From a virus, in IMG/VR virus record IMGVR_UViG_3300046660_000385, positions 53,859 through 117,858 of that record: 64,000 nucleotides of DNA. One strand, given 5' to 3'. This document shows positions 14,101 through 53,926 of the stretch, piece by piece. The translations under genes and the position numbers were made by a program. Each line of letters begins with the position of its first letter. The stretch's first letter is position 1. The notes under the pieces are model-generated. The model had not been told where the DNA came from and did no database searches. It saw only the letters and a program-made list of their open reading frames with translations.

Positions 14101-14489
14101 ACGCGCGCAGCACCGCGCAAGGCCAGCGCATCGCGGCCAACCCGACCGCCGGCAAGCTCGCCGAGCACGCGCTGCAGGGCGAATACACCAACCGCGGGCA
14201 CCAGATCCAGGGCGAGTCGAACGAACGCGTCGCCAAGACCCAGGCCGAGGCACAGATGGAAGCGCACCGTATACACACTGCGGGCGGTGGTGTCAACCAG
14301 GAGACTGGACAGCCAATGCCGACTAACATCTTCGACCAGAAGAAGAACGAATGGATCACTCCCCCTCGTAGTGTTCCGCCCAAGGCCGTGGCGATCCAGC
14401 AGGCGCGCGAATCGCTCAAGCGCGGCAGCAAGCTCGAGGACGTCAACGCAATTCTGCATGGTTACGGCTACGAGCCGATCACCCAGTAA
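11163..14489 (+). CDS. internal virion (ejection) protein with soluble lytic transglycosylase domain
   Basis: QESS catalytic Glu, GAVGPMQ, N..AG.RY and AAGYYGGP SLT motifs at about 13430-13770; N-terminal NLRQQ repeats; Ala/Pro linkers. Confidence 0.8.
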   Translation: MPNPDDLIEPSSQGNLRERINAGEAQRQASAGQVRERIADVAARQAPEPGNLRQQITNAAPMQQEQARAVQERMAQAPNLRQQLTNAAPQQAADARAVAQRLNPPTLTDVVKPGNINPSLRDDLIKNSVQAQNDAKAVQSRLQAGAAQPAPEPNLRQQILDAAPRQQMEAQQVAQRLNAGAPPATPQPDLRAQINAAAPQAQADAQAVQQRLQAGAPPAEPGMRERLLARAQAAPSAADQALRARLNPPGSIAQAASQAVAPAAPAADLGRMGAGVAGAAGRNPAAAPAARPAAPAASPAAPAAGPAAPPTAGVTDASGRPIPTRVPGATGGMTPSPSAGTVRPDVGAMRATMGLPPTPPGAAPAAGAAAGAAGIAAAGRAAGAAPAAAAAAPAAAPAAGAAADAAARARTAAGVAGAAGRAAGAGAPAAAAAAPAAEAGAGANATRLARTSYNVGKFVGNNRAILGKAGVAGAGAQVISHFNDYKLNEPDVDSSAGGTLKALFTGDLSGAGKSALKGLKEAAMDVGSAAANAADYVIPGNAPVSRAYDQMLHEKLGDKLVPDKSVIADMARGQPAPAAKPVPAAAPEAAKPVEKPAAPEAAKPAAKEGAKPAAAQAPQPNLSNMAANARDEALGAIDNEEAADPRAVYYETVNHKDGTTTYETRDRGQIVVKEGAQLSPEDQQRIETYKGRQSQRDGIEQRYQQMLQHLQGGGDGMVPASPVANAARSAGQAPSNPKFEQALGAEGADGDFAAFARSLIGQESSNGRNTKTSNRGAVGPMQVRPGTFGDMADKGWDINNEDHNMRAGIRYARMMWEKAGGDPALAAAGYYGGPSGLEKARAGHAVRDPKNPNAPDTLQYGQQVAARMGAGGAAAAPAQVAAPAAAAPAYGARDFRNPLDGAVEVINMGGNAERSMYLPGKGGDVRSGLTPEAYSTLQTAIRNNPALAERMVVNNSGVAVDGLAMPLNVIAGGDGMMAQYARSTAQGQRIAANPTAGKLAEHALQGEYTNRGHQIQGESNERVAKTQAEAQMEAHRIHTAGGGVNQETGQPMPTNIFDQKKNEWITPPRSVPPKAVAIQQARESLKRGSKLEDVNAILHGYGYEPITQ

Positions 14490-14501
14490 GGACCGGACGC
14501 T

Positions 14502-17500
14502 ATGGCAAACGACAACAAGGATCTGGGCGACTTCGCCGCGATCACCCCTGGCACGCAACCCGACCTGGGCGAGTTCGCCAAGATCACGCCCAACGGCGGC
14601 AAGCCGCGCAGCGCGATCGGCGAGATCGGCAACCAGCTCAAGGCCGGTATGCTGGTCGACCTGCCGAAGATGGCGGGCCAGGCGATCCAGTACACGTCCG
14701 ATCCTGGTCGTCCTGTCTATGAGTTCGGCAAGAGCATCGCCGACTACGCGCGCGAGCAGGAAGCGCGCCCCGACCTGCAGCCGCAGGAATACGACCACAA
14801 CATCGTCACAAACACGCTCGCCGCCGGCGCCCGCATGATCCCGCAGTCGATCATCCCGGCCGCCGGTGTCGGCCTGGTCGCGTCCGGCGTCGGCGCTGGC
14901 GCTGGCGGCGCGCTGCTGGCCGGTTCCGTGCTGGGCGCGGCCCCGGCCGGCATGGCGCAGGCCGAGGACACGCTGGAAAAGGCCCGCGCCAAGGGCGACA
15001 TTTCCGAGCACGATGCGCTGGTGGCCGCCCGCAAGACCGGCCTGATCGAGTGGGGCGGCGAGACCGTCGGCAACTACCTCGGCGGCAAGATGTTCGGCCT
15101 GGCCGGGCGCGCGATCGGCAAGACCACCGGCACCGCCGCCGAGCGTGCGCTGCAGGAAGCGACCAACACGCAGGTGCTCAAGCCGTGGATGCGCCAGCTG
15201 CCCGAGACCATCATCGGCGAAGTCGGCACGGAAATGGGCCAGAACGCGGGCGAAGCCTACGTCGAGCAGCAGGCCGGGATCGACAACCACGCGCCGTGGG
15301 ACGCCGCCAAGGAAGCGATTCTGCCGACCATCGGCATGACCGCGCTGCTGGCCCCGTTCGGCCTGGCCGGCATGGGCGTGAACGCGCACCGCCAGCAGCA
15401 ACGTAACGACGTCCTGACCTCGCCGGATGCCGACCAGAACTCGCGCACCCGCATCGCCGCCGAGATCGCGCCCGAAATCGAGAAGGTCGACCGCCAGGCC
15501 GCGGCGAATTTCCGCGTCAACGCAGCCCGCGCCATTTCGTCGAACCAGCCGCTGACGCTGGACTCGTCGCTGTTCGCCGACCCGGCGGCCGCCCCGCCCG
15601 CGCCAAGCGCCCCCGCCGCCCAGCCGGCCATCAACCCGGCCGACGCGCCGGACGCCGGCACCGACGTGGTGCCGCAGAACGCGATGACGGCCGCTGCCAG
15701 CCTGGTGCAGCCGATGCTGCCGATGCGCCAGGAGGGCGCCCAGAAGCAGGCCGAGGAACGCACCCGCACCACCGGCATCCCGCACGAGGTCGTGCCGCAC
15801 CCGAGCGCGGCCGGCATGTTCGGCGTGCGCGCGGTCCAGGACCCGGCGCTCGAACAGGGCGCAGCCCCGGCCGCCGAGGCGCCGCCGCTCGATCCTGCCG
15901 CGCCGGCGACCCCGGCCGCCCCGGTCGGCCTGCAGATCGGCGAGACCGTGCAGGCGACGATCAACGGCGAGGACGTGTTCCCGGAGGGCACCCGCATCAC
16001 CGGGTTCTCGCCGAACGGCAAGTTCGTGCTGGTCGAAGGTTCGACCGCCGGCATCCCGATCGAGAACATCACCCGCCTCGACCCGGCCGCCGCCGCCGCG
16101 ATCGAGCTTGGTGCGCACGAGGCCGCCACCAGCCCGCAGAACGACCGCCCGGAGCCGTCCGAGGCCCAGAAACACGCCGGCAACTACAAGAAAGGCCCGG
16201 CCGAGCTGCAGGGCCTGCCGCTGATGATCGAGAACCCGGTCGGCTCGACCCGCACCGGCACCGACCCGGACGGCACGCCGTGGTCGACCACCATGAGCGA
16301 CCACTACGGCTACATCCGTGGCACCAAGGGGTCCGACGGCAAGGAGCTGGACATCTACGTCGGCCCGAACCCGGCCAGCCACCATGTGTTCGTGGTCGAC
16401 CAGATGAACCAGGACACCGGCGAATACGACGAGCACAAGATCATGCTCGGCTACAACTCGCCCGAGCAGGCCCAGCGCGCCTACGAGGCGCACTACACGC
16501 AGGGCTGGCAGGGCGGCGAGAACGTCACCGCCACCACCGTCGACGGCCTCAAGGAGTGGCTCAAGGGCGACACCACCCAGCCGTTCAATCCGGCCTACTA
16601 CCCGGACATGCAGATCCCGGCCGGACCGGACCTGTTCAACACCGAGCAGGCCGCGCCGCCAGCCGTCACCACCGAGGCCCCGGCCGCGCCGCAGCAGCCG
16701 CAAGACAGGGAGCAGATCGCCCGCGACACGCTGCGCGAGCTGGGCCAGATCTCGAACGATCACTTCGGCGGCAACCACCCGAACGCGATCGACTTCGGCA
16801 CCGCCGACGGCACGTTCGCCGGCCTGGGCACCCTGAACATGGACGAGCAGGGCAACATCGTCCTGCGCCGCTTTGCCTACAACGAGGACCATGTCCTCAA
16901 GAACGGCAAGCCCGCCAGCCTGCAGGAAATGATGGATGCTTCGCTGTTTTCCGGCTCGACCCCGGACGCCGGCGCGGTGCCGACCTCGGGCCTGGCTTCG
17001 TTCCATGACGCCTACAGCAAGCGTGCGTACGACGCGATTTTCCGCATCCAGCCGCAGGAACTGGTCGAGCTGGCCAGGCAGGGCAAGGCGGTGCTCGGCA
17101 ACCTGAGCGAGGGCGAGGTCCTGCTGTCCGGCGACATCGCGGGCAAGTACCTGAGCGAACTGAACGGCAAGCCGGTCACGCCGGAAGAACTTCAGCGCCT
17201 GACCAAGCCGGCCGGGCGGATGCAGGGCGCGGCGCTGACCGAGGACGAGCTGAACGCCGCGTTCGACCAGGCCGAAAACGAGCTGGCGCAGGAGCAGAAG
17301 CCGCCCGCGCAGGAGCCGCAGGCCCAGGAACCGTCCGCACGCTGGGACAACGCTACGCCGGACGAGCGGATCGACATGCTGACCAAGGCCGGCCGAGGCG
17401 ACGTCGCCGAGGACTTCGCCCATGTGGGCTGGGACGACCTGTCGCCCCGCGCCCAGGAAGCGCTGTCCAGGCCCGCCCAGCAGCCGCAGAGCGCCTACGA

Positions 17501-20500
17501 GCGCTACAAGGAGATCATGACGCGCGGCGGCAGCGGCACGGCCAAGCTGGTCGACGAGATCCGCCGCAGCGACGAGCTGACCGACGCCCAGGTGCAGGAG
17601 CTGGTCGGGCTGCCGAAGATCGACAAGGCCGCCGAGGAGAAAAGCCGCGCCGACAGCGCCGCGTTCGGCCAGCGCGCCGCCGAGATCCTGTCGACCCTGA
17701 AAGGCCTGAAAACCCCGGACGCCATCGCCAGCGCCCAGCAGACCCTGTCCACGCTGGCCGACGACATGGACGCGGTGAACGACCGCTTCCGCAACCTGGT
17801 GCGCAAGGCCGCCGACGAGATCCCGGCGTGGATGCCGCACAACCTCGGCCAGGCCGGTGACGCCGAGCGCCAGGCCGCCAACCGCGTCAAGAACACGCTC
17901 GAAGGCGTGGCCAACTTCGGCAAGAACGTCACCGCGCCGGAACACGCCGGCAACGAATTCAAGGAATACGACCCGAACAACAGGTTCGAGCCGACCGCCT
18001 CGCCCGAGGACGCGATCGGCGAGGCCGAGATCGACGAGCGCGTGATCCCGCTCACGATGGACGCGAGCGACTTCAAGGAAGTCACCGACGAGTGGGCGTC
18101 GCTGTTCGCCGCCCCCGGCCAGAAGGTCATCACCGAGCAGCGCGCCAAGCAGGCCGGCGTCATGTCGCAGGAAGAAGCGGCCGCCCAGCTGGCCAAGTGG
18201 AAGGAACACGTCGCCAAGCAGGCCGAGGAGCACCGCGGCGAGAACTCCCAGCGCACGATCCTGTCGCTGTTCGACCTGTCGGGCGAGTGGTCCAAGCCGT
18301 GGCGCGAAGCCGGCTACAACGTCGTCACCTTCGACATCCAGACCGGCCAGGACGTGAACGACTTCTCGGTCGAATACTTCACCGACGAGTGGGACCTGAG
18401 CGACGTCTACGGCATCCTGGCCGCCGCGCCGTGCACGGATTTCACGCACGCCGCCTCGCGCCTGTGGGCCGTGAAGGACGCCGACGGCCGCACCGAGGCC
18501 TCGAAGGAGCTGGTGCTGCAGACCCTGCGCACCATCGAATATTTCCGTCCGAAGTTCTGGGCGCTGGAAAACCCGAGCGGCGGCCGGATCGAGAAAGTCA
18601 CCGGCCTGCCGTCGCCGCGCCTGTCGTTCCAGCCGCACCACTTCGGCAACCCGGAGACCAAGCCGACCGCGCTGTTCGGCAAGTTCAACCCGGAGCTGCC
18701 GCTGGCGAACGTCGCCCCGACCGGCAGCAAGACCGACAAGGTCGGCGGCAAGAGCATCGAGACCAAGAACGAGCGCTCGGAGACCCCGGAAGGGTTCGCC
18801 TATGCGTTCTTCATGGCCAACAACTACATCGACCAGACCCCCGAGCAGCGCCTGGTCGGCGACTTCCCCGAGCTGTCCGGCGCCGTCAAGGGCGCGCTCA
18901 AGGCCGGCATGGACGAAGAAGCGATCCGCGACGTCGTCACCCGCACCTACGAGGACGGCGACCCGGATGCGGCCCGCAACGAGCTGGTGCAGGCCGTGGC
19001 CGACCACGTCAAGGAGAACGGCGCCCCGGCCAAGCCGGCCGGGGTCGACTACCCGAACCGCCGCCTGGGTTTCCAGAAGGCGGCCACGGACGAGGCCGAC
19101 GCCTACAACGACCACGCCTGGGCCAACATCGCCGCGGCCAACATGAAGGTCGGCGACAAGTTCGAGCTGGGCGGCAAGCAGCAGAGCGTCGAGTCGATCA
19201 GCGACAAGACCCTGAAACTCAAGGATGCGGACGGCAAGACCCGCACCCTGAACCCGGACGGCGTGGCGTGGGACCAGTTCAAGCGCGACCTGGCCGGCCA
19301 GCTGGTGGTCGAGAACCTGCAGGCCAACAACATCATGAAGCCGGCGCGCCCGCTGATCGACATCCTGCGCCGCGATCCGGCCGCGCACGTCGACAGCAAG
19401 GGGTCCGTCTACCTGCGCGACGGCGGCCTGGTGCCGGCGGCAAAGCAGGAAGATGAGGAACAGGCGACCGCCTGGGCTGACGTCGAGACCGGCGACCGGA
19501 TGGACGTCGTCGCCTATCGCGCCCGTCCGTTCGGCGCGAAGGAGGATGGGCACCCGAAGGGCGGCGTGTTCTACGCCGAGACCGAGGACGGCACCGCCGG
19601 GTACGGCGGTACGGCTGCCGAAGTCGTCAAGGAAAAGCTGTCGCTCACGAACGTCCTGGTGGTGGACAACAAGCAGGCGGCATTGACGAAGCTGTTCGGC
19701 AAGAACAGCGACGAGCTGGGCAAGTATTTCGATGCCCGCGACGACGAGTCCAAGAACGCCGAGAGCGTGGCGGACGAGCTGATCGGCCCGGCGGCGAAGG
19801 CAGCCGGCTACGACGCCGTTCTCTACAAGCAGGACACCGACCTGTACGGCAACGCCACCCGCTCGCTGCAGGTGGTGCGCAATGTCGACAGCCAGGCCGA
19901 GCAGGCCAAGCCAGAGGCGCCCGCGCCGGCCGCGACCGAGGACGAAGCCAAGCCCGGCAAGATCCGCTCGTTCAGCGAGGACGAGAAGCGCGCGATCGCC
20001 GGGATCTCGCTCGGCACCGGCACCCTGGTCAACCGCGAACTCGAACTGGGGCTGGGCAACTTCATCCGTCCGAACACGATCAAGGCGCTGCGCGAGAAAC
20101 TGCTGGGAATGGACCCGGACAAGGTGCGGCCGTACATCGACGGCGCCGTGCGGCGCTACGAGCGCGAGCGTGCGGAAAAAGAGCCGGTCGTGCAGAACCA
20201 GCAGAAGATCCACGTCTACGACGAGAAGGAAGCCAAGCCGCTCCTGATTATCGCCTGCACCGAGGAAAAGCTGGCGGGCCGCCACGCCGTGATCGACCTG
20301 TACCAAGGGGCGATGTTCGACGTGCTGCGCAAGTGGCTGCCGAAGGGCGCGATCGACGTCTACGTCCTGTCGGCCAAGTACGGCCTGGTGCGCGCCGAAG
20401 CCGTCCTGCAGAGCTACGACGAGAAGATGACGGCCTCGCGCCAGAAGGAGCTGATCGCCGAGGGATTGGTCCCGAGCGACTTCAAGGGCAAGAATTTCAG

Positions 20501-23500
20501 CGAGGTCTACATCGCCGGCGGCCAGCTGTACGCCCCGGTGGCGCAGGTCTACGCCGAGCAGCTGCGCGCGGCCGGCTTCGTCGGCCCCGAGGCCGAGGTC
20601 AAGGGCACGGTCGGCTTCATCGGCCAGCAGCGCGGCCAGCTGGGCGAATACCTGCGCACCGTGCACGAGCGCCTGGGCACCCTGCCGGAACGTCCGGCGC
20701 CGCTCGAGGTGGGCGTGCGCGTGCGCATCAAGCGCCTGACCAAGGCCCCGGTCGCGGGCGTGTCGCTGAAAGACGCCAACCGCTTCGCCGGCCGCATGGG
20801 CACGGTCGAGCGCGAAATGATCGTCGGCGAGAACCGATATTTCATCGTCAACCTGGACGACACCCCGGAAAAGGTCGAGCGCCAGCAGGAATTCCACAGC
20901 GGTTTCCTCGACGTCCTGACCCCGGCCGAGCAGGCCGCGCCGGGCGAGCTGGCCGACGACGTCGAGAAGCGCAAGGCGCAGATCCGCGAGCAGGTCGAAG
21001 CCACGCTGGGCGCCGACAAGCAGCTGGTGGCGCAGGCTGACCTGGTCGGCACCGGCAACCGCTTCGTCGACTTCAAGGACAGCTACAAGGCCGCGTTCGA
21101 GAGGACGCTGGCCCAGATGGCCAAGGACGGGAAGATCGAGGCGCGCGACGTCCAGATGTTCACCGACAGCCTCGACAAGCTGCCCGGCTATCTTGACCGC
21201 GCCGCGCGCCAGTTCATCAACGACCACCACGGCCCGGACAACCAGGAACTGTCCTCGCTCAAGCACAAGTGGGGTTATACCGACGAGAACGTACCGAAGG
21301 ACGGCCGCTTCCCGGACTACGAGACCGCGCTGAAATTCGACAACAAGCGCACCGGCAAGGAACAGTTCTCGTTCGAGATCCAGGTGGCGCAGGGACCGAA
21401 CGGCCGCTGGGCCGTCTCGTCCGGCTACCAGCAGGGCGGCCAGACCGGCAACGCCACCGGCATCGGGATGATCCCGCCGGCGCTGACCTCGGAAGCGCAC
21501 CGCACCCGCATGCTGGCCGTCGAGGCCGGCGGCGAGGCGATCCGCCAGCACCTGGCCGCGAACGGCAAGGAATCGCTGCGCACGACCGGCAATATCCTGA
21601 CCGCGATCACCAAGCTGAAACTGCTGGGCGAGCTGCGCGACAAGGCGGCCGCGCTGGCCGCGCGCGCCGAGGCCGCCGGCGCAGAGAAGCTGGCCGGCCA
21701 GATCCGCGAGGTCGGCCGCGACATGCAGCCCAACGACGTCAACCTGACCCGCAAGCGCGTCGACGAGACGATCGCCGGGCGCGAGAAACTGGTCCGCGCC
21801 GCCGAAAAGCGCGCGGAAAAGAAAGCCGCCGAGAAAGCCGCCAAGGCCGAACCGAAGGCCGACCCGAAACCGGAGCCGGTCGCGCCCGAAGCGCCGCAGC
21901 CGAAGCAGGACGCGCCAGGCACCCGCCGCTTCCCGAAGTCCGTGCGCACCGCGATCGCCACGCGCCTGCAGCAGGTGCTGGACGGTTTCAGCGCCGACCG
22001 CAACACCCGCGAAGGTCGCGCCCGGTCGATCATGCGCAGCGCGATCGAGGAGCTGGGCAAGGAAAAGACCGTCATCGACGTGGCCGACCAGCTGCGCGAT
22101 GCGTCCAGCGACCTGTTCAAGCAGTTCAAGGTGCAGGCCGACGTGCTCGACGAGATCGCCGACCAGCTCGACGCGGCCGAGAACCAGCAGGAGCAGGAAG
22201 TCCCGGCCGCGGTCGCGGAACCGGCCAGCCCGGCGAAATTCGACATCGGCACCCCGCCCACGCTGGACTACCGCCTGCAGACGCGCGGCGGCACGCTGTA
22301 CCTGATCCCGCCGGTCGGCAAAGGTTTTACGAAGGAAACCCGCGACGCCCTGCGCGACTGGCTCAGGAGCGCAGGCTACTTCTCCAACGCGACCGGCGAC
22401 CACATGGTATCGGCCAGCCAGATCACCGGCGGTCCGTCCACCGACCTGATCCCTGACGGCGTCGAGGAACAGAAATACGGCAGGCTCGTCGCCAAGGAAA
22501 AGGCAAAGGACGACGGCGCCCTGGCCGGCTCGCGCCCGATGTCGCCCAAGCAGTTCGAGACCGACCTGAAAGATCACGGCAAGCTGCGCTTCGGCGAAGC
22601 GACCTACGAGGTCAAGCCGGCCGGCCGCGGCGGCTTCGGCCGCATCCAGGCCGACACCTATATTGTCGAAGTCAGCTATCCGCACAGCAACAAGCAGATC
22701 GGGTTCCAGCAGAACCTGTCGCTGCAGCAGGCGGTCGAGGCCGCCCGCGTTGACGCGTTCGACTGGTGGGACAACCGCCGCGTCAAGGAAGCCGAGTTCG
22801 CCAAGAAGCGCGAGAAGCTGGTGCGCGCCGGCCAGCGCGAGCTGTTCGGGCTGTTCTCGAAGGACCCGGATCTGATGAGGATCGCGGCCGACGCCGGCCT
22901 GCCGGTCGAGGTCGACGCCGCCGCGCGCCGCGCGATCGTGGACTGGGTCGCCGCCGAAAAGGCCGTTGCCGACCTCGATCCCGACCGCAAGCTGATGCTG
23001 GACAACATCGTCATCGGCGGCCGCGTGACGTTCCCGTCCGAGTGGTTCGACTCGCTGCGCAAGTACCTGAAACGCGCGGTCAAGCGCGCCGAGAAGGAGC
23101 TGGACCGCGACCCGGCCGTGTACCAGGCCGAGCTGATCCGCTCGGCGCAGCTGGTCGGCCTGCCGCCCGAGAGCGTGGGCGTGTTCAAGCTGGGGTTCGA
23201 CCACGCGCTGGCCGGCAAGACCAAGTCGACCCTGCCGCCGTCGACCATGATGGCGCAGGGCTATGACGCCGGCGCCGCGTGGATGAAATCGGACGAGGGC
23301 CAAGCCTGGTTCACCGGCCGCCGTGGCAAGAAGCTGGAAAACACCGGCGCCGACCTGCGCCGCTGGTTCGACGAATCCAAGCGCAAGATCAAGGAAGTCA
23401 CGGCCGACAACCTGACCGCGTCCTACGAGATCATCAAGGGCCAGGCCTCGCGCGTGGAGGCGTTCGCCAACGTCGCCGGCCCCGGCGCCACGCCCGGCAC

Positions 23501-26500
23501 CAAGCGCTACATCACGGCCGTGCGCGACAGCCTGCGTCCGTTCCAGGAATGGCTGCTCGAAAACGGCCCGCTGCAGACCCTGTACGGCGAGACCGGCTAC
23601 CGCGAGAGCGAGTCGTTCAGGATCACCCGCTTCCTCGACGGCCGCGCCTACCCGATGACGTACGACGCCACCGGCAAGCGCGTCAGCATGGAGGACGCCA
23701 CGGCGCAGGAACGCCTCGAGCTGCTGCAGGAGGCGGCCGCCACCTACAACGCCCGCCTGCAGGGGCTGGCCGAGGCGATGAGCGGCGCGACCACGGTCGA
23801 GGAGGCCGCCCGCGCCTACCAGGGCTACCTCGTCAAGAACAAGGACGAGTACGTCTACAGCAGCACCCGCCTGACCGAGGCCGGCAAGGAAATCGACCGC
23901 CTGGTGCGCGGCCGCGTCCACGACCTGGAACCGGACACCCGCGAGGTCGAGAACCTCATCAAGACGCAGAACGAGCCGGACGGCCCGAGCAACCGCAAGC
24001 AGGCGCTGATGGTGCCGAAACTCGACCACGTCGTGCGCGAGGGCGAGAAGCTGCAGGATTACCGCAAGGGCGAGAACGTCACGCCGCAGCAGATGAAGGA
24101 CACGTTCGGCTTCGCCGACGTCGGTTTCGGCAAGTGGGTCGGCGCCAAGCAGGACCAGGACCACCTGAACTACGCCTATGACGCGTTCATGGACCTGGCC
24201 AAGCTGCTCGGGATCGACCCCAAGCACATCGGCCTGGGCGGTTCGCTGCACTTCACGATCGGCGCACTCGGCCACGGCCGCCACGCTGCGCACTTCCAGG
24301 CCAGGCAGCCGCACCCGCACGGCGGCACCGTGCCGGTCATCAACGTCACCAACACCAAGGGCGACGGCACCGTGGCGCACGAGTGGTTCCACGCGCTCGA
24401 CCACGCGCTGAGCGAGCAGTGGCACGGCAGCAGCTGGGTCCAGCATGAGGCCGTGCAGCGCGTCGTCCGACTGCTGTCGACCAGCCGCGACATCGAGTTC
24501 TTGGTGAAGAAGCTGCCGCTGGCCGTCAGCGGCCAGTCGTTCATGCGCTATGGCCGCCGCAACACGCCGATCCACAACCTCAAGACCGAGGCCGGCCTGA
24601 TCGAGAACGCCGAGGCGGTCCTGCGCTACGACGCCGGCCGCCAGGGCGGCCGCCCGACCGACTACAAGAAGAACGCCGACGCGATGGGCGAGGACTACTG
24701 GGGCAACCCGAAGGAGCTGCTGGCGCGCGCCGCCGAGGCCTGGGTCCACGACACCCTGGGCGGCACCTCGAACTACCTGGTCAACCCGGCATGGGTCGGC
24801 GAGGGCAAGGTCAAGGCGCCGCAGTACAAGGGCGCGCCGTATCCGATGGGCGAGGAAAGGAAACTGTTCAACGATGCGCTCGGCGCGCTGGTGAAGGCGC
24901 TGCGCTTCAACGACAAGGGCGTCACCCTCGACAAGGAAACGTTCGACAAGGAATTCCCGGACCTCGACCGCCAGTTCAAGGAAGCCTACGAATCCCTCAA
25001 GGCCCAGATCCCGTCGATGGTGCGCGCGCACCTGGCCGAGAAGGAAGCGCGCAAGGTGGCCCAGAAGTACGCCAAGGACGAGGCCGAGCGCGCCAAGCAG
25101 GCCGAGGCGCTGGCGGCCCAGAAGGCGAAAGAGCAGGCCGAGCGCGATGCCGCGGAGGCACGCCTGCGCGAGGAGCTGGAAAAGCAGCAGCAGCAGCCGG
25201 TCGAGCCGCCTAGCGGTCCGCTCTCCGAGGGCGACCTGGAAGCGCTGTTCGACCAGGCCGAAAGCGAGCTGGCCGAGGAGCAGCAGGAGCAGCCCGAGGC
25301 GAAAGACCCGGGCGAAGCCACCCAGGCCGACCACTGGACGCAGGAGGATTATCAGCACCTGCTCAAACTGATCGACGACGGCCAGGTGTTCCTGCTGGCC
25401 GATCCGTCGCGCGGCCTGTCGATCATCCACGACATGCCGGGCCAGTACACCGAGCACAAGGGTTTCGGCCTGTTCCACACCAAGACCCCCGAGTACGACG
25501 TCACCTGGGACGGCGGCGGCGAAATGCGCCAGACCCCGGGCGGCAAGTCGTACACGCTGGTGTCGATCAAGGAAGGGCGCGAAGCGTTCCTCAAGGCGAT
25601 CAACTGGGACCAGGCCAAGACGAAGCTGCAGGCGAAACTGATCGTCAAGACCGGCCCGAAAGCCGCGCCGACCCTGTCGGCCGAGCAGGAAAAGAGCGCC
25701 AAGCAGCTGATCGGCGAGGCCGCCAAACTCGGCGTCACCGGCATCGAGGAGTCGCTGAAAGGCCTGATCCAGCTGTTCGGTGGCAACGCCCTGAAATCGT
25801 TCCCGGCCGGCTTCGACGAGGAGTCCTACAAAGCCGCGAAGCCGCACTTCGAGAAGGCGCTGGCCGCGTTCCAGGCCGCCGGCAAGACGCTGGTCGACCT
25901 GTTCAAGATGCTGATCCAGCACTTCGGCCCCGGCATCCGCCCGTACGCGATCCAGTTCGCCAAGGAGCAGGGCCTGTCGGCCAACCTGGCCCCGCCAGTG
26001 TCGGCGACCGAGAAGATCGCCAAGTGGGTCGAGCAGCGCCTGCAGGCGAAGGAGACGTTCGGCTCGGCGCCGCTGTTCAAGGTCGCCGACGAAGCGTTCG
26101 GCGGCACCCAGGCCGAGGGCAAGTACAGCGTCAAGGACGCCTACGACGCGATGGAAGCGGGCATGAACCGCCACATCATGGCCCAGGGCATCACCCCGGA
26201 TGGCGCCGCGACCGACGCCGTGCACAAGATCGAGGAGCTGGACGGCTGGACCCAGCGCCTGGCGACCCAGACCCGCCGCACCGAGGAAATGGACGAGTAC
26301 CAGCAGTTCTCGACCCCGCCGTCGGAAGCGTTCGCCGCGGCCTGGCTGGCCAACATCCGCCCCGGCGAAGTCGTGCTCGAGCCGTCGGCCGGCACCGGCA
26401 GCCTGGCGATCTACGCCAAGCTGGCTGGCGCCGACGTCGTCGTCAACGAGCTGTCGTCGCGCCGCGCCGAGGTCCTGAAAACCGTGCTGCCCGAGGCGCG

Positions 26501-29500
26501 CCTGTTCCAGGAGAACGCCGAGCAGCTGCACAACATCCTGCCGGCCGACGTCAAGCCGAGCGTGATCCTGATGAACCCGCCGTTCTCGGCGACCGCCGGG
26601 CGCATGCAGGGCGCGCGCGACACCAACAACGGCGCCACCCACATCGAACAGGCCCTCAAACGCCTGCAGGAAGGCGGGCGCCTGGTGGCGATCGTCGGCA
26701 GCGGCATGGCCGCCGACCGTCCGGCGTTCAAGAGCTGGTGGACCAAGATCCGCCAGGACTATAATGTACGCGTCAACATCACCGTCGACGGCAGCAACTA
26801 TGCCAAGTACGGCACGACGTTCGACAACCAGATCCTGGTCATCGACAAGACCGGCCCGACCACGGCCGCGGTCGTCACCGGCGAGGTGAAAACGCTGGCC
26901 GAACTGCCGGCACTGCTGGAAGGTATCCGCAATGAACGAAAAGCTGCTGAAGGTACGGATGGCGCGCACCCTTCTGGTCAACCAGATGCCGATCAACAGG
27001 GCGGCGATCGAGTTCCTGCCGGGCAAGAAGCCGCTGGCGACCGAGCCGGCGGTGCTGACGCTGATCCGGTGGGGACTGGACAACGGGATCAATCCGATTC
27101 CGGTGGCGCCGGGCTACCCGGACATCGACAGGATGGAAGCGCAGGTGGACGCGATGGCGAACAGGTGGGAGCCGAGGCGGGCGGTGAGGTTTCTGACCAA
27201 CCCGGAAAGCCAGGACCCGCTGGACGTGGTGCTAACGGCCGAGGAACTGGCGGCCTCGGCAACACCCGAGGACGCAGCGGAACTGCTGATCGAGAATCTG
27301 TACCACGCGATGGTGGCCAACAGCCCGTAACCGGCGAAGTCACGGTCGAAGCGTCCGACCAGGCCGCCGCCACCGGCGAGCTGTCGGACGCGATCTTCGA
27401 GAACTACACCCCGCAGCGCTTGTCGATCCCGGGCGCCAAGCCGCACCCGGGCAAGCTGGTCCAGTCCGCCGCCATGTCGGCCGTGCTGCCCCCAAGCCCG
27501 TCCTACGCCCCGAACCTGCCGAAAGCCGTGATCGAGAAGGGCCTGCTGTCACTGGCCCAGCTCGAGGCGGTGGTCTACGCCGGCCAGGCGCACCAGCAGA
27601 TGCTGCCGGGCGGCGAGGTGCGCCGCGGCTTCTTCATCGGCGACGGTACGGGTGTTGGTAAAGGCCGCGAGATCGCCGGCATCCTGCTGGACAACCAGCG
27701 GCAAGGCCGCAAGAAAGCGGTCTGGCTGTCGGCCAAGCAGGGCCTGCTGCGCGATGCGAAGCGCGACTTCGCGGGCGTCTCGGGCAACCCCGACCACATC
27801 CTGGCGCACAACAAGGTCAAGGCCGGCGAGAAGATCGACGCCGACAGCGGCATCCTGTTCACGACCTATGACACGCTGCGGATGGGCAGCGACATCAAGA
27901 ACAACGCCCCGGGCCTGGCCGGCCCCGGCACCATGAGCGCCGAGCAGCTCAAGGCCACCTACCCGAAAGGCACGCCGATCGAGTGGCGCGGCCGCAGCGG
28001 CACCCTCGAATCGTGGGATACGCGCGGCCACAAGGCCAAGATCTCCCTGCCCAACGGCGTGCAGACGACCGTGCGCTTCGACGAGCTGAAGGTGAACGGC
28101 CAGAGCGGCTGGGGCGGGATCGACCACGTCAAGAACGACAAGAAACTCGATTCCAAGTCGCGCCTGAACCAGATCGTCGAGTGGCTGGGCAAGGACTTCG
28201 ACGGCGTGATCGCGTTCGACGAAGCCCACAAGATGGGCAACGTGCTCGAACGCAAGGGCAAGCGCGGCAAGACCAAGCCGTCGGCCACGGCGCTGGCCGG
28301 CGTGGCGCTGCAGGAAGCGCTGCCGAAGGCGCGCATCGTCTACGTCTCGGCGACCGGCGCCACCGAAGTGCACAACCTGGCCTACGCGACCCGCCTGGGC
28401 CTGTGGGGCGAGGGCAGCGCGTTCGCCAAGGTGACGGACTTCGTCGGCGGCATCGAATCCGGCGGCGTGGCGGCGATGGAACTGGTCTCGCGCGACATGA
28501 AGGCACAGGGTTCGTACCTGGCCAGGTCCCTGTCGTTCGACGGCGTCACCTACGACCGCCTCGAGCACCAGCTGACCCCGCTGCAGAACGACATCTACAA
28601 CGAGCTGGCGCGCGCCTGGCAGGGCGTGCTGCAGAACGTCAACGCCGCGTTGGAGGCCACGCTGCAGAACAAGGACCCGAAGGCGAAAAGCAACGCCCTG
28701 TCCGCGTTCTGGGGCAACCACCAGCGCTTCTTCAGCCACATCATCACGGCCATGCAGATGCCGACGATCATCGAGGCCGCCCAGCGCGACCTGGACAACG
28801 GCCACGCGGTCGTGATGCAGCTGGTGAACACCAACCAGGCCGAGCAGGACCGCCAGGCCGCCAAGATGGCCAACGACGACGAGGCGATCCCCGAGGACTT
28901 CGACTTCACCCCGCGCGACACGCTGCTGAACTATGTGCGCCACTCGTTCCCGGTGCAGCAGCACGAGGAGTACACCGACGAGGAGGGCAACAAGCACACC
29001 CGCCCGGTCGTCGACTCCAAGGGCAACCCGGTGTTCAACCAGGAAATGGTGGCCAAGCGCGACGCGCTGGTGAAGAACCTCGAACAGATCCGCGTGCCGG
29101 ACAACCCGCTCGACATGATCGTGCGCGCGTTCGGCGTCAGCAACGTGGCCGAGATCACCGGCCGCTCGCGCCGCTTCATCCAGGAGCAGGACCCGAAAAC
29201 GGGCGGCTTCAAGGTCGTCGAGCAGAAGCGCCCGGCGTCCGCCGTGCCGGCCGATGCCGACGCGTTCATGGACGACAAGAAGCGCGTGCTGGTGTTCTCC
29301 GACGCCGGCGGCACCGGCTATTCGTTCCAGTCCGACCTGGGGGCGAAGAACCAGCGCCGCCGCATGCACTACCTGGTGCAGCCGGGCTGGCGCGCCAACA
29401 ACGCGGTGCAGGGCTTCGGCCGCACGCACCGCTCGAACGAGGCCAATCAACCGCACTACGTGCTGCCGACCACGAACCTGAAAGCGCAGAAGCGTTTTAT

Positions 29501-32500
29501 CTCGTCGATCGCACGGCGCCTGGACCAGCTGGGCGCACTGACCAAGGGCCAGCGCGAGACCGGCGGCCAGGGCCTGTTCGCGGCCACCGACAACCTCGAA
29601 TCGCAGCACGCCGCGGACGCCGTGCAGGCGTTCTTCGTCGACATGTACAACGGCACGGCGAAACTCAACTTCGCCGAGACCACGGCCGCGCTGGGCCTGA
29701 ACGGCCTGATCGACGAGAGCACCGGCGCGCTGATCTACGGCAAGCTGCCGGAAGTGCCGAAGTTCCTGAACCGCCTGATGTCGCTGGAAACCCACCGCCA
29801 GGACGAGGTGTTCGAGGAGTTCTTCAACCGCCTGACGGAAGTGATCGAGCGCGCCAAGGCCAACGGCACCTTCGACGCCGGCATGGAGACCCTGCGCGCC
29901 GACAAGGTGACGAAGCTGCGCGACGAGGTCGTCTACGAGGACAAGCGCACTGGCGCCAACACCCGCTATGTCGAGCTGGAACTGACCCACCCGACGCACT
30001 TCAACTCGTTCGACCAGGCCCAGTCCGAGATCGTCCGCTGGGGCGACAAGTTCCTCGGCTTCTTCCGCAACGAGAGGACCGGCAAGGTGTTCGCGCTGAT
30101 GCGCACCGGCACCTCGACCGACGCCAAATCCGGCAACGTGGTCACGCGCGGCGCGCAGCTGCGCACGACCGGCGGCTACCGCTACGGCGACGAGGTCGAC
30201 AAGATCATCAAGGGCGCGCGCGGCGAAAAGACGGTCAAGAAAACCGTGGTGCCGATGCTGTACTCGCCGCCGACCAACGAGGTGCTGACCGAGACCTACA
30301 CCAACACGAACGACAAGCAAATGACGGTGTCCTCGCACCGCCTGGCCGACCTGCTGATCCAGCGCGGCCTGGAACGGGTCGAGCAGACCATCCTGGCCGG
30401 CCCGTCCGGTTCGGAGCGGGACGCGTTCATCCGCCTGCTGGACAAGATGCGCCCGCACCTGGTGGCGCAGAAGGAGACCGAGCGCCAGGTGCCGGCGTTC
30501 GTGCGCCTGACCGCTGACGCGGCGCGCTCCGAGTGGGATGCCGAGGTCGCCGCCACCCCGACGACCTACACCAGCAAGACGCACCTCTTGACCGGGATGC
30601 TGCTGCCGATCTGGGACCGCCTGCCGGGCGACCCGCGCGTGGTGCGCACCCAGACCGAGGACGGCGAGCGCCTGCTGGGCCGCGTGGTATCCGAGCGCAA
30701 CCTGGACCAGACCCTGAAAAACCTCGGGGTCGGCTCGAACCTGTCGAAGGTCGCACCGAGCACCGTGCTGCAGCGCCTGATGGATGGCCAGCGCGGCATC
30801 CTGGCCAACGGCTGGCTGCTGCAGAAGGTGCGCGTCTCGAACGACAGCCGGATCGAGATCAGCGGCCAGTCGCTGGCGTACAACCGCGCCGAGCGCGAGC
30901 TGCTGACCAACAACGGCGCGTTCGTCGAGCGCATCAACTGGCAGGAGCGCGTGTTCATCCCGACCGGGGAGCAGGGCGTCAAGCTGCTCGAGAAGCTGCT
31001 GGAATACAAGCCGCTGGTCGAGCTGGGCAAGCCGGCCGAGGCCCAGACCGAGGACGAGGACGCCGAGTTCTCGCGCGGACGAAGCGACACCGGCATGTCC
31101 AGGGGCGACGTGCAGAACGTGGTCGCGCCGATCGTGAAGGGCTGGCTGAACGGCCCGAAAGTAACTGTCGTCCAGAGCGTGGCCGACCTGCCGTTCAAGG
31201 CACCTAGCGACACCCGCGGCGCGACCTACCAGGGACAGGTCTGGATAGTGGCGGACAACCTCGGACACGCCGGCGAAGTGCAGTTCGTGCTGGCGCACGA
31301 GGCGCTGGGCCACATCGGCCTGCAGGCCCTGCTGGGCAAGGAAGCGCTGACCCGCGAGCTGAACCGCCTGCGCCTCATCAACCCGGAGCTGGCCAAGGCC
31401 GCGCGCGAGCAGGCCGCCACCTTCGGCTACGACCTGAACCTGGCCACCGAGGAAGCGCTGGCGGATCTGGCCGGCACCGGCAAGACCATCAACGGCTGGC
31501 AGAAGTTCGCCGCGCTGGTGCAGAAAGCCCTGCGTCAGCTGGGCCTGGACCGGGTCGCCGACTGGATGGAGGGCAAGACCCAGGCCGAGACCATGTCCTT
31601 GCTGGCCCGCGCCAGGGAGGCGGTCGAGGGTTCGCGCGCCGCGCGCACCTTCGGCAACATGGAGACCGCCCGGTTCTCGGACGGCATGAAGTCGCCCTGG
31701 TTCTCGCAGCTGGCGCGCCAGATCGAGCGCCTGCCGCAGAAGTCGGCCACCGCCCTGCAGTGGGGCGAGACCATGATGGGCAGCGGCTTCGCCCAGAAGG
31801 GCGTCAAGCAGGACGAGATCTACTGGACCGGCGTGATGGACTGGCTGCTGATGCAGGGCGAGAACACCAAGGTCACGAAGGCCGCGCTGCTGGACTACCT
31901 GGCCGAGAATGGCGTGCGCGTCACGGAAACGATGCACAGCGAGGAAGTGCCCGAGCCGACCCCGGAAGGCCTGGCCAAGCGCGAAGCGGTGCTCGCCAAG
32001 TACAACGAGCGCCTGGACGACCTGCAGGAGCGCATCCTGGACAGCGACGAGACGCCCGAGCGCCTGGCGCTGCAGGAGGAGTGGTCGAACCTGATCGACC
32101 AGCGCAACATCGAGGCCGACCTGGCCTACCGGCTGCCGTCCAACCGCTTCCAGCGTCCGCGCTACGCCAGCTACACGCTGCCGGGCGGCGAGAACAACCG
32201 CGAGCTGCTGCTGACCCTGCCCGCGCGCGAGCCGTCCTTCAAGCTGGACGACTACATCGGCGAGCTGAGCGACAAGTACGGCTGGGAGGTCCAGGGCAAC
32301 ATGCGCCGCCCGGGGTGGACCGAGGACGACCTGGCGCCGGACGAGCGCACCAGGCTGCACGCGCTGCAGGAAGAATCGCTGCAGGAGGACAACGAGCGCA
32401 CCCGCAATACCTTCCAGTCGAGCCACTGGGACCAGAAGAACGTGCTGGCGCACGTCCGCTTCAACGACCGCACCGACAGCGAGGGCAAGCGCGTACTCCA

Positions 32501-35500
32501 CGTCGAGGAACTGCAGAGCGACTGGGGGCAGATCGGCAAGCGTGACGGCTTCAAGGGCGACCCGGTCCCGCCGGCGGAACTGGACGCGGCCGCCAAGGCC
32601 GCGCGCCAGGTGCTGAACAGGAACGACAACCTCGGCTTCGACTACACGATCGAGGCGATGAGCGCGATCGAGCACCACAACGACTGGAAACACCGCTGGG
32701 AGCTGGACACGCCGTCGGACTATGCCGTGGTCGACCACTACCGGCAACTGTACATGTTGAACGCGCTGGCCAATGCCGGCGTGCCGCAGGCGCCGTTCGT
32801 CGGCAAGACCGAGGCCTGGCTGAACCTGGCTTTGAAGCGCGTGATGGTCTACGCCGCCGAGAAGGGCTACGACCGTGTCTCGTTCGTCACCGGCGACCAG
32901 GCCGTCAACCGCTTCAACCTGTCGCAGCAGGTCAAGGCGGTCGAGGTCGAGAAGGCGGTCGGCGAGCCGGGCTACCGCGTCAACATCACGCTGCTGGACG
33001 GCGAGCCGCACGAGACCTGGGCCAACGATGACCACGACCTGGTCAACCTGATGGGCAAGGAGCTGGCCAGCAAGGCGATCGACCAGATCAAGGCCGATCC
33101 GTTCAGCGCCGCCCGCTTCACCGGCGACAACCTGAACCTGGGCGGCCACGGCATGCGCACGTTCTACGACAAGATCGTGCCGAACGCGGTGAACAACCTG
33201 ATGAAGGGGCTGGGCGGCGGCCGCGTGTACGAGGGCGACGTCATCCACAAGGAGCCGTACGACCCGAAGCCGGGCACGACCAACTACGTCGACGAGGACG
33301 GCCGCCTGGCCTACGCCAACCACGGCGTCACCGGCGACCCGGACTTCGGCGCCAACAACTACTACCCGTACAAGGGGTGGAGCAGCCAGCCGGTGATCGA
33401 CATCACCGACACCATGCGCGAGAAGGTACAAGGCGGCCTGCCGCTGTTCTCGCGCAACGTCGAGGACACCGGCCCGCTGCCGGCGGCGAGGGACGAGGCC
33501 AGCGTGCGCCTGTCGCGCGCCACCCCGCAGCAGCTGGCGCGCCAGGTCGGCGACACGCTGAAAACCAACACGGTGACGAAGCTGGGCCGCACGCTGTCGC
33601 ACTACCGCTCGATCGGCCTGCAGTTCCTGGGCCGCCTGCAGCTGACCGAGATCTACGGCAAGCTGTTCCCGCAGGGCGACCGGCCAAACATGCTGCAGTT
33701 CTACAGCGAACTGGCCGCGTTCATGGACGCCGAAAAGACCGAGGGCGGCAGCAAGGCCGACGCCATCGTCGACCGCTGGGCCAAGCTCAAGCGCGCCGAC
33801 GAGCTGGCCAGCCTGATGCACGACAGCACCCGCCGCGAGATCGACCCGTCCGAGGCCTACGTCACCGGCGACAACTACACGCACTGGAAGGAACTGAACG
33901 CGCGCTACGAGGCCCTCAAGAAGGCCGAGCCGGAAGCGATCAAGATCTTCCACGAGGCGGCGCAGATGTACCAGACCCACTACGCCAACGTGCGCCAGGC
34001 CGTGAAGGACCGGATCGACCGCACCCTGACGGCGCACCCCAACCGCAAGAGCCTGATGCGCCGGATGGAGCAGGAGTTCTTCGGGCGCGGCATCAAGGGC
34101 GTGTACTTCCCGCTGGCGCGCTTCGGCGACTACGTCGTCACCGTGCGCTGGGTCGGCAAGGACCCGAAACCGGGGCAAAGCGTGGTGCGCGAGGCCGTCA
34201 TCTTCGCCGAGACCCTGAACCAGGCCGAGGACGAACGCCGGCGCCTGCTGGCCGAGTACCCGGCGTCCAAGGGCTACCAGGTGATGCCGGTGACGAAGCG
34301 CGCCGAGTTCAACGCGGCCAGGGATTCCGTCTCGCGCGGCTTCCTGAAAAAGCTGTACGCCGCACTGGACGACGCGGGCCTGCAGGACCCGTCGCTGCAG
34401 GACACGATCAACCAGCTGTATCTGACCAGCCTGCCGGACCTGTCCTGGGCCAAGAGCGGCATCCACCGCACCGGCATGCCGGGCTTCAGCCAGGATGCGC
34501 GCCGCGCGTTCGCCCACCACATGTTCCACGGCGTGTCCTACCTGGCCAAGCTGAACTACTCGGACCGGCTGGCCGAGGTGCTCGAGGGCATGCAGAAGTT
34601 CGCCAACGCCAACGCCGCCAACCCGGACTACGACCACGTCAAGGCGCAGCAGGTCATCGACGAGATGCACAAGCGCCACGACAACTACATGAACCCGAAG
34701 GGCAACCAGCTGTCGACGAAGCTGACCTCGTTCGGTTTTGTCTGGTTCCTGGGTGCGTCGCCGGCCTCGGCGCTGACCAACCTGCTGCAGACCCCGACGG
34801 TGGCGCTGCCGATCCTCGGCGGCCGCTTCGGCTACTCCAAGGCGACGTCGGCGCTGATCGAGGCGTCCGGGCTGGCGATGCGCGGCCACAACGACATGGG
34901 CAAGATCCTCAAGGGCGACGAGAAGCGCGCCTGGGAGGAGTGGCTGCGCATCGGCCTGGTCGACCTGACGATGGTGCACGATCTGGTCGGCGTGGCCTCG
35001 GGCCGCGACAACCAGCTGCACGGCAACATGCGCAAGGTGATGAAGGTGGCATCCTTCATGTTCCACCACGCCGAGCGCTTCAACCGCCAGGCGACGGCGC
35101 TGGCGGCCTACCGGCTGGCGCGCAAGGACGGCATGAACCACGACGACGCGTTCCGCGCCTCGGTCGAACTGACCAAGGCCTCGCATTTCGATTATGCCTC
35201 GTCAAATCGCCCGCGCTTCATGCAGGGGTCGGCGGCGCAGGTCGTGTTCCTGTTCAAGCAGTACAGCCAGAACCTGATCTACACCTTCGCGCGCAACGCG
35301 AAACTCGCGTTCCAGGGCGACCGGCAAGCGCAAAAGACGCTGGCCGGCCTGCTCGTCACCCACGCGATCGCGGCCGGCATCATCGGCCTGCCGGCGGTGT
35401 CGACGCTGCTGGCGGCCGCGTCGATGCTGGGCGGCAGCGACGACGATCCGTGGGACGCCGAGGTGGCGCTGCGGCGCCTGCTGGCCGACCTGTTCGGCGA

Positions 35501-53586: not shown

Positions 53587-53926
53587 GGGCACCTTCCGGG
53601 GCGTTGAGCAGCTGCACCGTGTTGTCGATGCGTTCGTGGAACGCTTCCAGCATTTCCTCGGCGCCTTCGCCGGCGATCTGCACCGCCAGCCGGGCGATGG
53701 CATCGGCCACCAGGGTGAAGGTCCCGCCGACGCGGCGCGCGTACTCGACCGCTTCCGGGTCGACGTCCTCGACGTCTTCCGGGTCCAGCACGACCGTCAC
53801 CAGGTCGTCCTCGGACAGGGCGTCGAACACCGCGCCGAAGTAGCAGCCGAAGCACGGCAGGCCGCCGTCCTCGGGGTGGAACACGGTGTCGTATTCCGGG
53901 CCTTGCGCGTCGTCATGCTCACTCAT
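53576..53926 (-). CDS. acidic CxxC protein (paralog B)
   Basis: SD AAGGAGG; GLPCFGCYFGAVFDA. Confidence 0.7.
   Translation of the reverse strand: MSEHDDAQGPEYDTVFHPEDGGLPCFGCYFGAVFDALSEDDLVTVVLDPEDVEDVDPEAVEYARRVGGTFTLVADAIARLAVQIAGEGAEEMLEAFHERIDNTVQLLNAPEGAHVH

Follow-up and report, generated by a model that had tools for sequence, protein, structure and literature searches.

A predicted gene in the +1 frame of the spacer between methyltransferase and helicase in a giant phage polyvalent protein gene

Results

A second open frame between the methyltransferase and helicase parts of a giant gene

The DNA analyzed here (hereafter the window: 64,000 nucleotides, positions 53,859 to 117,858 of the IMG/VR record IMGVR_UViG_3300046660_000385) is part of a virus record of 117,858 bp that is complete according to CheckV, and it contains a 21.7-kb open reading frame (ORF) encoding a giant multi-domain protein. 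Within this giant ORF, between the part encoding an adenine methyltransferase (MTase) module and the part encoding a strawberry-notch (Sno)-type helicase, a second ORF is open on the same strand in the +1 frame, and this nested ORF, together with its predicted product P0001, is the subject of the present analysis. The features of the locus are:

14502..36191, plus strand: host polyvalent protein gene, 7229 aa, with InPase, DUF6884, LPD1, adenine MTase motifs, a Sno-type helicase and LPD39
25851 (approximately)..26930, plus strand: adenine MTase module, with LEPSAGTG and NPPF motifs in the translation, ending in the conserved LLEGIRNER
26918..26923, plus strand: GGAAGG, Shine-Dalgarno (SD)-like, 8 nt 5' of the nested ATG, written by the giant-frame L-E-G codons of LLEGIRNER
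26932..27330, plus strand: predicted nested gene, 132 codons plus TAA, in the +1 frame relative to the giant ORF; product P0001
26931..27329, plus strand: giant-frame spacer of 133 residues, rich in G, A, D and R, joining the MTase to the helicase
27330..29888, plus strand: short remaining spacer, then the Sno-type helicase module (AAA_34, E = 2.7e-114; Helicase_C_4, E = 2.7e-83)

The nested ORF runs from an ATG at 26932 to a TAA at 27328-27330, in a frame that is one base ahead of the giant frame. By itself, an open +1 frame of 133 codons is unremarkable at 68% GC: about 6.5 such runs are expected by chance in the giant ORF, and its longest other +1 run spans 223 codons. That more than chance is at work here follows from a switch in codon composition together with the homologues described below. 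When the GC content at third codon positions (GC3) was scanned in 143 intervals of 300 nt along the giant ORF, the giant frame had the highest GC3 in 140 of them. The three others (26802-27101, 26952-27251 and 27102-27401), in which the +1 frame reached 0.77-0.90 and the giant frame 0.44-0.60, represent the sole switch of the third-position GC frame within the giant ORF and coincide with the nested ORF. Inside the latter, GC3 is 0.88 in the nested frame versus 0.42 in the giant frame (0.94 in the giant flanks), and the codon-position composition resembles that of an ordinary gene read in the +1 frame. The giant-frame spacer contains 35 G, 17 A, 14 D, 12 R, 11 Q and 10 P among its 133 residues. 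An initial annotation, made from the letters of the window, had pointed to an ORF with an SD-like GGAAGG, an ATG and a TAA in the +1 frame, to a GC3 anomaly confined to it, to A or T at the end of 21 of the first 30 giant-frame codons (counted from 26931) and to a disordered-type linker in the giant frame. Each of these observations was borne out, the three exceptional intervals covering exactly the ORF and the linker having 6% hydrophobic residues. Contigs from two sequencing runs, one of them possibly the source sample, reproduce the stretch.

Two very long antisense ORFs also lie within the giant gene (11913-27092, minus strand, 5059 codons; 27549-35186, minus strand, 2545 codons). These shadow ORFs are by-products of the extreme GC3, and the gap between them falls on the nested ORF as an independent mark of the local frame switch.

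Judging from its domains, its MTase motifs and the virus record in which it stands, the predicted giant protein is a polyvalent protein with a methylase-helicase dyad. Pfam domains detected in it are InPase, DUF6884 and LPD1 upstream of the nested ORF and AAA_34, Helicase_C_4 and LPD39 downstream of it, the Helicase_C_4 match spanning residues 592-853 of the part that starts at 27330. For the region upstream of the nested ORF, no Pfam methyltransferase match was obtained at E <= 0.01; its tblastn matches are proteins annotated as N-6 adenine methylase, DarB-like or strawberry-notch, the similarity to the "DarB-like" proteins being distant (25-27% identity), and mean column identity in an alignment of the MTase module (A6) is 59%. 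Since the giant gene lies 3' of structural and tail-like genes and 5' of an endolysin gene, a role of its product in the virion or in ejection is plausible, as judged from gene position.

The arrangement and its start signals recur in phages and plasmids

The layout was compared at 17 distinct loci with nested ORFs (window included; GC 37-68%) from phages, four plasmids and one bacterial metagenome-assembled genome (MAG), two of the loci retrieved through the helicase sharing contigs with loci L001 and L002. At all 17, both frames are open and the nested ORF is one base ahead of the giant frame. It stands in the same place in all four close viral loci and is also present in L009, L024 and L025, where its product is 31-35% identical to P0001, and each of the eight loci that were retrieved with the N-terminal part of the helicase (GC 37-67%) has a +1 ORF of 119-152 codons exactly in the linker. 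Its carriers include the plasmids of Methylomonas LL1, Methylotuvimicrobium alcaliphilum 20Z and Thioflavicoccus mobilis as well as one Methylomirabilota MAG. The M. alcaliphilum plasmid is MEALZ_p, with WP_014133156.1 as the host CDS. A 6-nt indel among relatives leaves both frames intact, and nested homologues down to 23-35% identity retain the conserved motifs. At 37-48% GC, a +1 run of this length is expected 0.02-1.0 times per ORF part. As a control, the plasmid-encoded MTase-Sno protein of L019, which is of the common conjugative type and motif-less, showed no frame switch, its +1 reading being junk. Homologues that sit in the same linker with start and stop conserved, of the kind that the initial annotation had suggested looking for, were thus recovered in relatives.

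The signals for a separate start are written into the end of the MTase. In 8 of the 10 loci compared, the ATG falls within the giant-frame R-N/D-D/E codons of the conserved LLEGIRN(D/E)R, and about 7-10 nt 5' of it the same eight loci have an SD-like run (GGAGG, GGAAGG or GGGGGA) in Leu/Glu/Gly-type codons, which are L-E-G in most. The two other loci have a GTG at the equivalent place, presumably with a GGAGG. L027 has the same SD and start layout, and free-standing homologues (see below) start at the same N-terminus. Since the start signals are conserved and free-standing homologues share this N-terminus, internal initiation is favored over frameshifting. The LLEGIRN(D/E)R motif coincides with the predicted translation-initiation signal, which may itself contribute to the conservation of the motif.

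In a predicted database protein of 183 aa, P0018, the C-terminal end of the MTase as read in the giant frame runs on into the nested-frame product, reflecting either an indel in its contig or a frameshifted variant that occurs naturally.

Selection acts on both readings of the nested stretch

Ratios of nonsynonymous to synonymous substitution rates (dN/dS) were estimated by the Nei-Gojobori method for the window and three relatives (6 pairs), using the same alignment columns for both frames. They amounted to 0.37-0.73 in the nested frame versus 0.59-1.65 in the giant frame, and to 0.29-0.51 in the giant flanks; the downstream values of pairs with L002 (0.86-0.94) are unreliable because an intein is inserted there in L002. 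These comparisons, together with the 255 homologous clusters described below, indicate that purifying selection acts on the amino-acid sequence of the predicted nested product, as had been proposed initially.

What about the giant frame, which diverges more freely over the same columns? For 10 loci, we calculated the exact probability that the giant frame would be free of stop codons given the nested protein, if codons were drawn from the local usage of the giant flanks. This probability was 8e-5 for L012, 5e-6 for L013, 1e-5 for L014, 7e-6 for L015 and 3e-5 for L018, which are all low-GC loci, then 0.009 for L009, 0.047 for L017, 0.44 for L003 and 0.35 for L004, with a Fisher combined p of 2e-18 over the 10 loci. 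A stricter control, in which each gene's own synonymous codons were shuffled, gave 0.014-0.72 per locus. The underlying bias is apparent at third positions: T is found at 2-9% of them in nested genes versus 28-34% in the flanks of low-GC loci, and the proportion of G is 0.37-0.60 in nested genes everywhere, which results in the Gly/Asp/Ala/Ser-rich spacer of the giant frame. Selection thus keeps the giant chain continuous and hydrophilic, though not its sequence, and the values of 5e-6 to 8e-5 per low-GC locus imply that both readings are kept.

The predicted product belongs to a family of small, acidic, helical proteins

Eight metagenomic homologues of 120-130 aa are 61-82% identical to P0001 and have both termini in common with it. 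A profile search of 1.84 billion cluster representatives retrieved 255 clusters at E <= 1e-3, including 55 at E <= 1e-10, and the 150 profile matches listed are 47-316 aa long. Using jackhmmer locally from P0001, we recovered the products of L012 (7e-14), L013 (5e-15), L015, L018, L023, L009 and L026. Pfam, PHROGs, NCBIfam and PADLOC contain no match to the family, and only single fused members match a helix-turn-helix (HTH) domain or DUF4124. Neither P0001 nor the L015 ORF matched cultured phages in tblastn searches; P0001 matched nothing in the plasmid collection either, and the L013 ORF had four matches among plasmids, the fourth being Methylomonas AM2-LC. A first scan of genome contigs detected no member. 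The family is rare in bacterial genomes, since it was found in one of 400 sampled genomes of the class of G001, that one being the search center itself. In both plasmid records that were inspected, L018 and L027, the gene is absent from the (incomplete) gene table of PLSDB, in line with the earlier suggestion that standard annotation misses it.

P0001 is a protein of ~14 kDa with a pI of 4.86 and a net charge of -5, and 125 family proteins of 100-145 aa have a median pI of 4.8; the family median of the net charge is -7 (range -16 to +2). Its AlphaFold2 model, computed from a 15-row alignment, consists of seven helices with a predicted local distance difference test score (pLDDT) of 87.6 and a predicted template modeling score (pTM) of 0.84, which agrees with the globular-looking product described in the initial annotation. 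Because the near-invariant positions of the family are Pro, Asn, Ala, Leu and Trp, the nested product looks like a binding or structural protein rather than an enzyme. Searches for relatives returned nothing of use: a sequence-profile search of the PDB had no match at E <= 1, Foldseek with the P0001 model reached a best E of 1.4 against the PDB and 0.76 against BFVD, thereby yielding no fold relative, VIA-align gave a best Z of 3.8 in its wide search (none >= 5), and the ESM Atlas contained no usable match. When the MTase module, the N-terminal part of the helicase and the nested protein were co-folded, the prediction scored 0.00, which is uninformative either way.

Free-standing copies and gene fragments

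Family members also occur as ordinary small free-standing genes in mobile-element settings (L006, L007, L008, L020 and L026). Neighbors of these copies are ParA and HEPN in L007, Endonuclease_NS and DUF5681 in L006, a DUF3987 primase with an Eco57I-type methylase and a T5orf172-ResIII helicase downstream in L020, and a terminase with a UvrD helicase downstream in L026. The free-standing copies have the same G-rich, T-poor third positions as the nested ones. Nine of the 15 inner branches in a tree of nested and free-standing copies are unresolved, and the tree does not give the order of the two states. The term "overprinted", by which the nested ORF was initially described and which stands for a de novo birth inside the giant gene, is therefore not established, since free-standing homologues exist elsewhere and the tree cannot order the states.

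Two loci, L021:5054-5758 (Rugamonas fusca) and L022:4955-6100 (an Aromatoleum MAG), combine the nested gene with short remnants of the giant-gene flanks, and the giant-like frame is open for only 281 codons in L021 and 416 codons in L022. The former adjoins a serine recombinase with a reverse transcriptase and the latter an MmeI-type enzyme; both look like fragments of polyvalent genes in bacterial chromosomes.

A hidden antisense gene in a relative and other features of the giant gene region

At L011:1975-3015 (approximate; same contig as L002), in a relative that is 95% identical, an intein splits the Walker-A motif of the helicase (Intein_splicing, E = 3.9e-15); the window has FFIGDGTGVGKG uninterrupted near 27630 and thus lacks the intein. 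In the giant frame, which is still open, the middle of the intein reads as P/S/A/R junk with a GC3 of 0.44, and the opposite strand (L011:2171-2878) encodes a 235-aa endonuclease with HTH and HNH_3 (HNH_3, E = 9.8e-10). Apparently, the homing endonuclease of this intein is encoded antisense. With the HNH gene, a second gene lies hidden in the giant ORF, again in a part on which the sole demand is to stay open. No description of an antisense endonuclease inside an intein was found in the portion of the literature that was covered.

Over the 430-residue stretch that 27330-28619 encodes, less of the helicase is covered in the window, L003 and L013 than in L004, L009, L012, L015, L017 and L023. 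As AAA_34 in addition matches the window in two stretches, this suggests an insertion within the first ATPase domain. Upstream of the giant gene, two adjacent paralogous ORFs (6552-8903, 783 aa; 8914-11151, 745 aa) both match phrog_10969, a family of unknown function, and precede a 1108-aa protein with a lytic-tail-protein-like part that stands directly before the giant gene.

Discussion

An independent gene in the spacer of a polyvalent protein gene

Considering its composition, its homologues and its conserved start signals, the nested ORF is very probably a real, separately initiated gene; sequence comparisons place it, as a same-strand, fully nested coding gene, in the spacer by which a polyvalent (DarB-like) phage protein joins its MTase to its strawberry-notch helicase. 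We also regard as likely the reading as a whole, namely that an independent gene with a start of its own lies in the MTase-helicase spacer and encodes a companion product.

Ribosomes on the giant ORF would then read the stretch as a featureless hydrophilic spacer and go on into the helicase, and other ribosomes would start at the internal SD and ATG written in the LLEGIRN(D/E)R codons, making a separate acidic, all-helical protein of ~14 kDa. Presumably, this product is needed as a separate polypeptide and the giant protein must stay one chain for its delivery to the next cell, which could take place via the virion or a conjugation channel. Acting as a helper, holder or regulator, the nested product would most likely bind, in the producing cell, to the giant protein or to the DNA-modifying pair within it; it would be a non-enzymatic companion of the methylase-helicase pair, translated from the message that also encodes them. 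A functional partnership with this pair is a tentative proposal, with odds somewhat below even, and a role as chaperone or inhibitor specifically is an unlikely refinement of it. The dedicated inhibitor, chaperone or packaging factor for the MTase-helicase that the initial annotation had suggested is a conjecture. One may also imagine that giant polyvalent proteins which are injected or transferred share a common design, with genes placed in their spacers: as delivery would require a continuous chain, helper or selfish genes with products that have to be separate would be written in other frames of the spacers or on their opposite strand, the spacers having no need but to remain open, the 130-aa protein would have a new fold and serve the MTase-helicase pair as an obligate helper (a holder, inhibitor or specificity factor) translated from the shared mRNA, and the antisense HNH gene would be a second instance. 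Such a generalization seems doubtful to us.

The main rival to a companion of the dyad is an accessory gene that hitch-hikes in a permissive spacer (a "moron", for example an anti-defense or host-directed factor) and whose function is unrelated to the MTase-helicase pair. Free-standing homologues beside unrelated genes (L006, L007, L020 and L026) speak for it, as does the fusion of one family member to an Xre-type HTH and of another to DUF4124. The antisense HNH gene in the intein of the 95%-identical relative adds to this, since it shows that spacers of the giant ORF, in a part that must only stay open, do host unrelated genes. A mere passenger would, however, hardly be expected at exactly the same junction in polyvalent proteins of phages and of conjugative plasmids when the nested proteins are only 23-35% identical, nor with start signals fused to a conserved MTase motif, and the free-standing copies of L020 and L026 are again near methyltransferase and/or helicase genes. 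We consider this rival rather improbable, yet serious.

Two other explanations dispense with a separately started product. In one, a programmed +1 ribosomal frameshift from the giant frame would generate a truncated polyvalent protein ending in the helical domain. The +1 frame is indeed open for 14 codons before the ATG (up to a stop at 26887-26889), and P0018 joins the C-terminal end of the MTase to the nested frame, but the start codon is conserved in place at 10 of 10 loci (with an SD-like run and ATG in eight, GTG in two), free-standing homologues begin at the same N-terminus, and neither a conserved slippery site nor a 0-frame stop was seen in the 45-nt interval concerned. Moreover, no long fusion occurs among the 150 profile matches listed, and a word-based search of longer proteins (306-2000 aa), which is weak evidence, found no in-frame fusion; frameshifting is thus very improbable. 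In the other explanation, the frame would be open by chance in a high-GC gene, or would result from two compensating indels in an assembly, with no separate product at all. The expected number of +1 runs at 68% GC and the huge antisense shadow ORFs in the same gene could be taken in its favor, but the +1 frame has the codon-position composition of a normal gene, runs of this length are expected far less often at low GC, the 255 homologous clusters exist, independent assemblies as well as finished plasmid sequences agree in start and stop, and contigs of two runs (one maybe the source sample) reproduce the stretch. Unless all homologues are artifacts, these comparative data refute chance and artifact, which we now consider barely credible.

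Several observations nonetheless weigh against an independent gene for a companion of the dyad. The nested frame, at 0.37-0.73, does not have a very low dN/dS, and selection on the giant frame is visible only in relatives, the probability of an open giant frame in the window itself being 0.60. None of the 15 runs listed as containing the stretch is an RNA run, all of them being DNA contigs. The ORF found at the expected position in L014 has no detectable homology to the family, and that of L017 is marginal (hhalign P = 0.08). Furthermore, neither conserved catalytic-type residues nor a family or fold match were found, which means that the proposed function draws on position and general reasoning, and the idea of a dedicated partner is weakened by free-standing homologues whose surroundings show no giant gene.

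If the nested ORF is an independent gene of the spacer, as we favor, it matters in several respects. Long same-strand nested genes with good support are rare on plasmids and in phages with double-stranded DNA (dsDNA), and the rules of annotation pipelines discard them; the present one is conserved at 37-68% GC with measurable selection on both frames, making it a clean natural test case for dual coding. It would add an unrecognized component to a widespread methyltransferase-helicase counter-defense module, and its product represents a protein family of 255 clusters without family annotation or fold relative. Its presence on plasmids of cultured methanotrophs makes it directly testable.

Comparison with known systems

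Polyvalent proteins have been described as single chains with many effector domains, including LPD domains, in which an adenine MTase is coupled to a Sno-type SWI2/SNF2 ATPase, and this MTase-helicase dyad occurs either fused or as neighboring genes (Iyer et al. 2017, PMC5512222). The host gene of the window has the same defining architecture. In a term search of the main text of that article (Iyer et al. 2017, PMC5512222), nothing turned up on a gene lying out of frame between the MTase and helicase halves of the dyad. More generally, the literature covered, with few subscription journals and main texts only, yielded no account of a nested gene in proteins of the polyvalent, DarB-like or strawberry-notch type.

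The experimental example of polyvalent proteins is DarB of phage P1, which is carried in the virion and injected, and shields DNA against type I restriction. DNA-mimic antirestriction proteins such as Ocr and ArdA have a very strong negative charge and a DNA-like shape; the net charge is -5 in P0001 and ranges from -16 to +2 in its family. Small acidic export chaperones, such as VirE1 for VirE2 and the class I type III chaperones, are encoded beside their substrates. As a working analogy, the predicted nested product may be likened to them in being acidic and ~13-14 kDa in size, in its lack of catalytic motifs and in its cis location to the gene of a very large, probably delivered protein, whereas no sequence or fold similarity to them was found.

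In the overprinted genes of small viruses, one stretch is read in two frames of the same strand, and the constraint on the resulting products is asymmetric (reviewed in PMC8227390). The locus described here differs in that the nested product is predicted to be well folded and is strongly conserved, that the "old" frame is a spacer and that free-standing homologues exist. Fully embedded +1-frame genes are a known kind in phages: of the lambda spanin genes Rz and Rz1, one lies entirely within the other, in the +1 frame and with a separate start, and both products are made. The nested gene resembles this pair in being a same-strand +1 gene of a dsDNA phage with a start of its own, as far as sequence can tell. 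It differs from Rz/Rz1 in that its host encodes a 7229-aa multi-domain protein, that the overlap is a sequence-unconstrained spacer, that the nested protein is predicted to be soluble and helical and is of unknown function, and that the arrangement is also found on conjugative plasmids.

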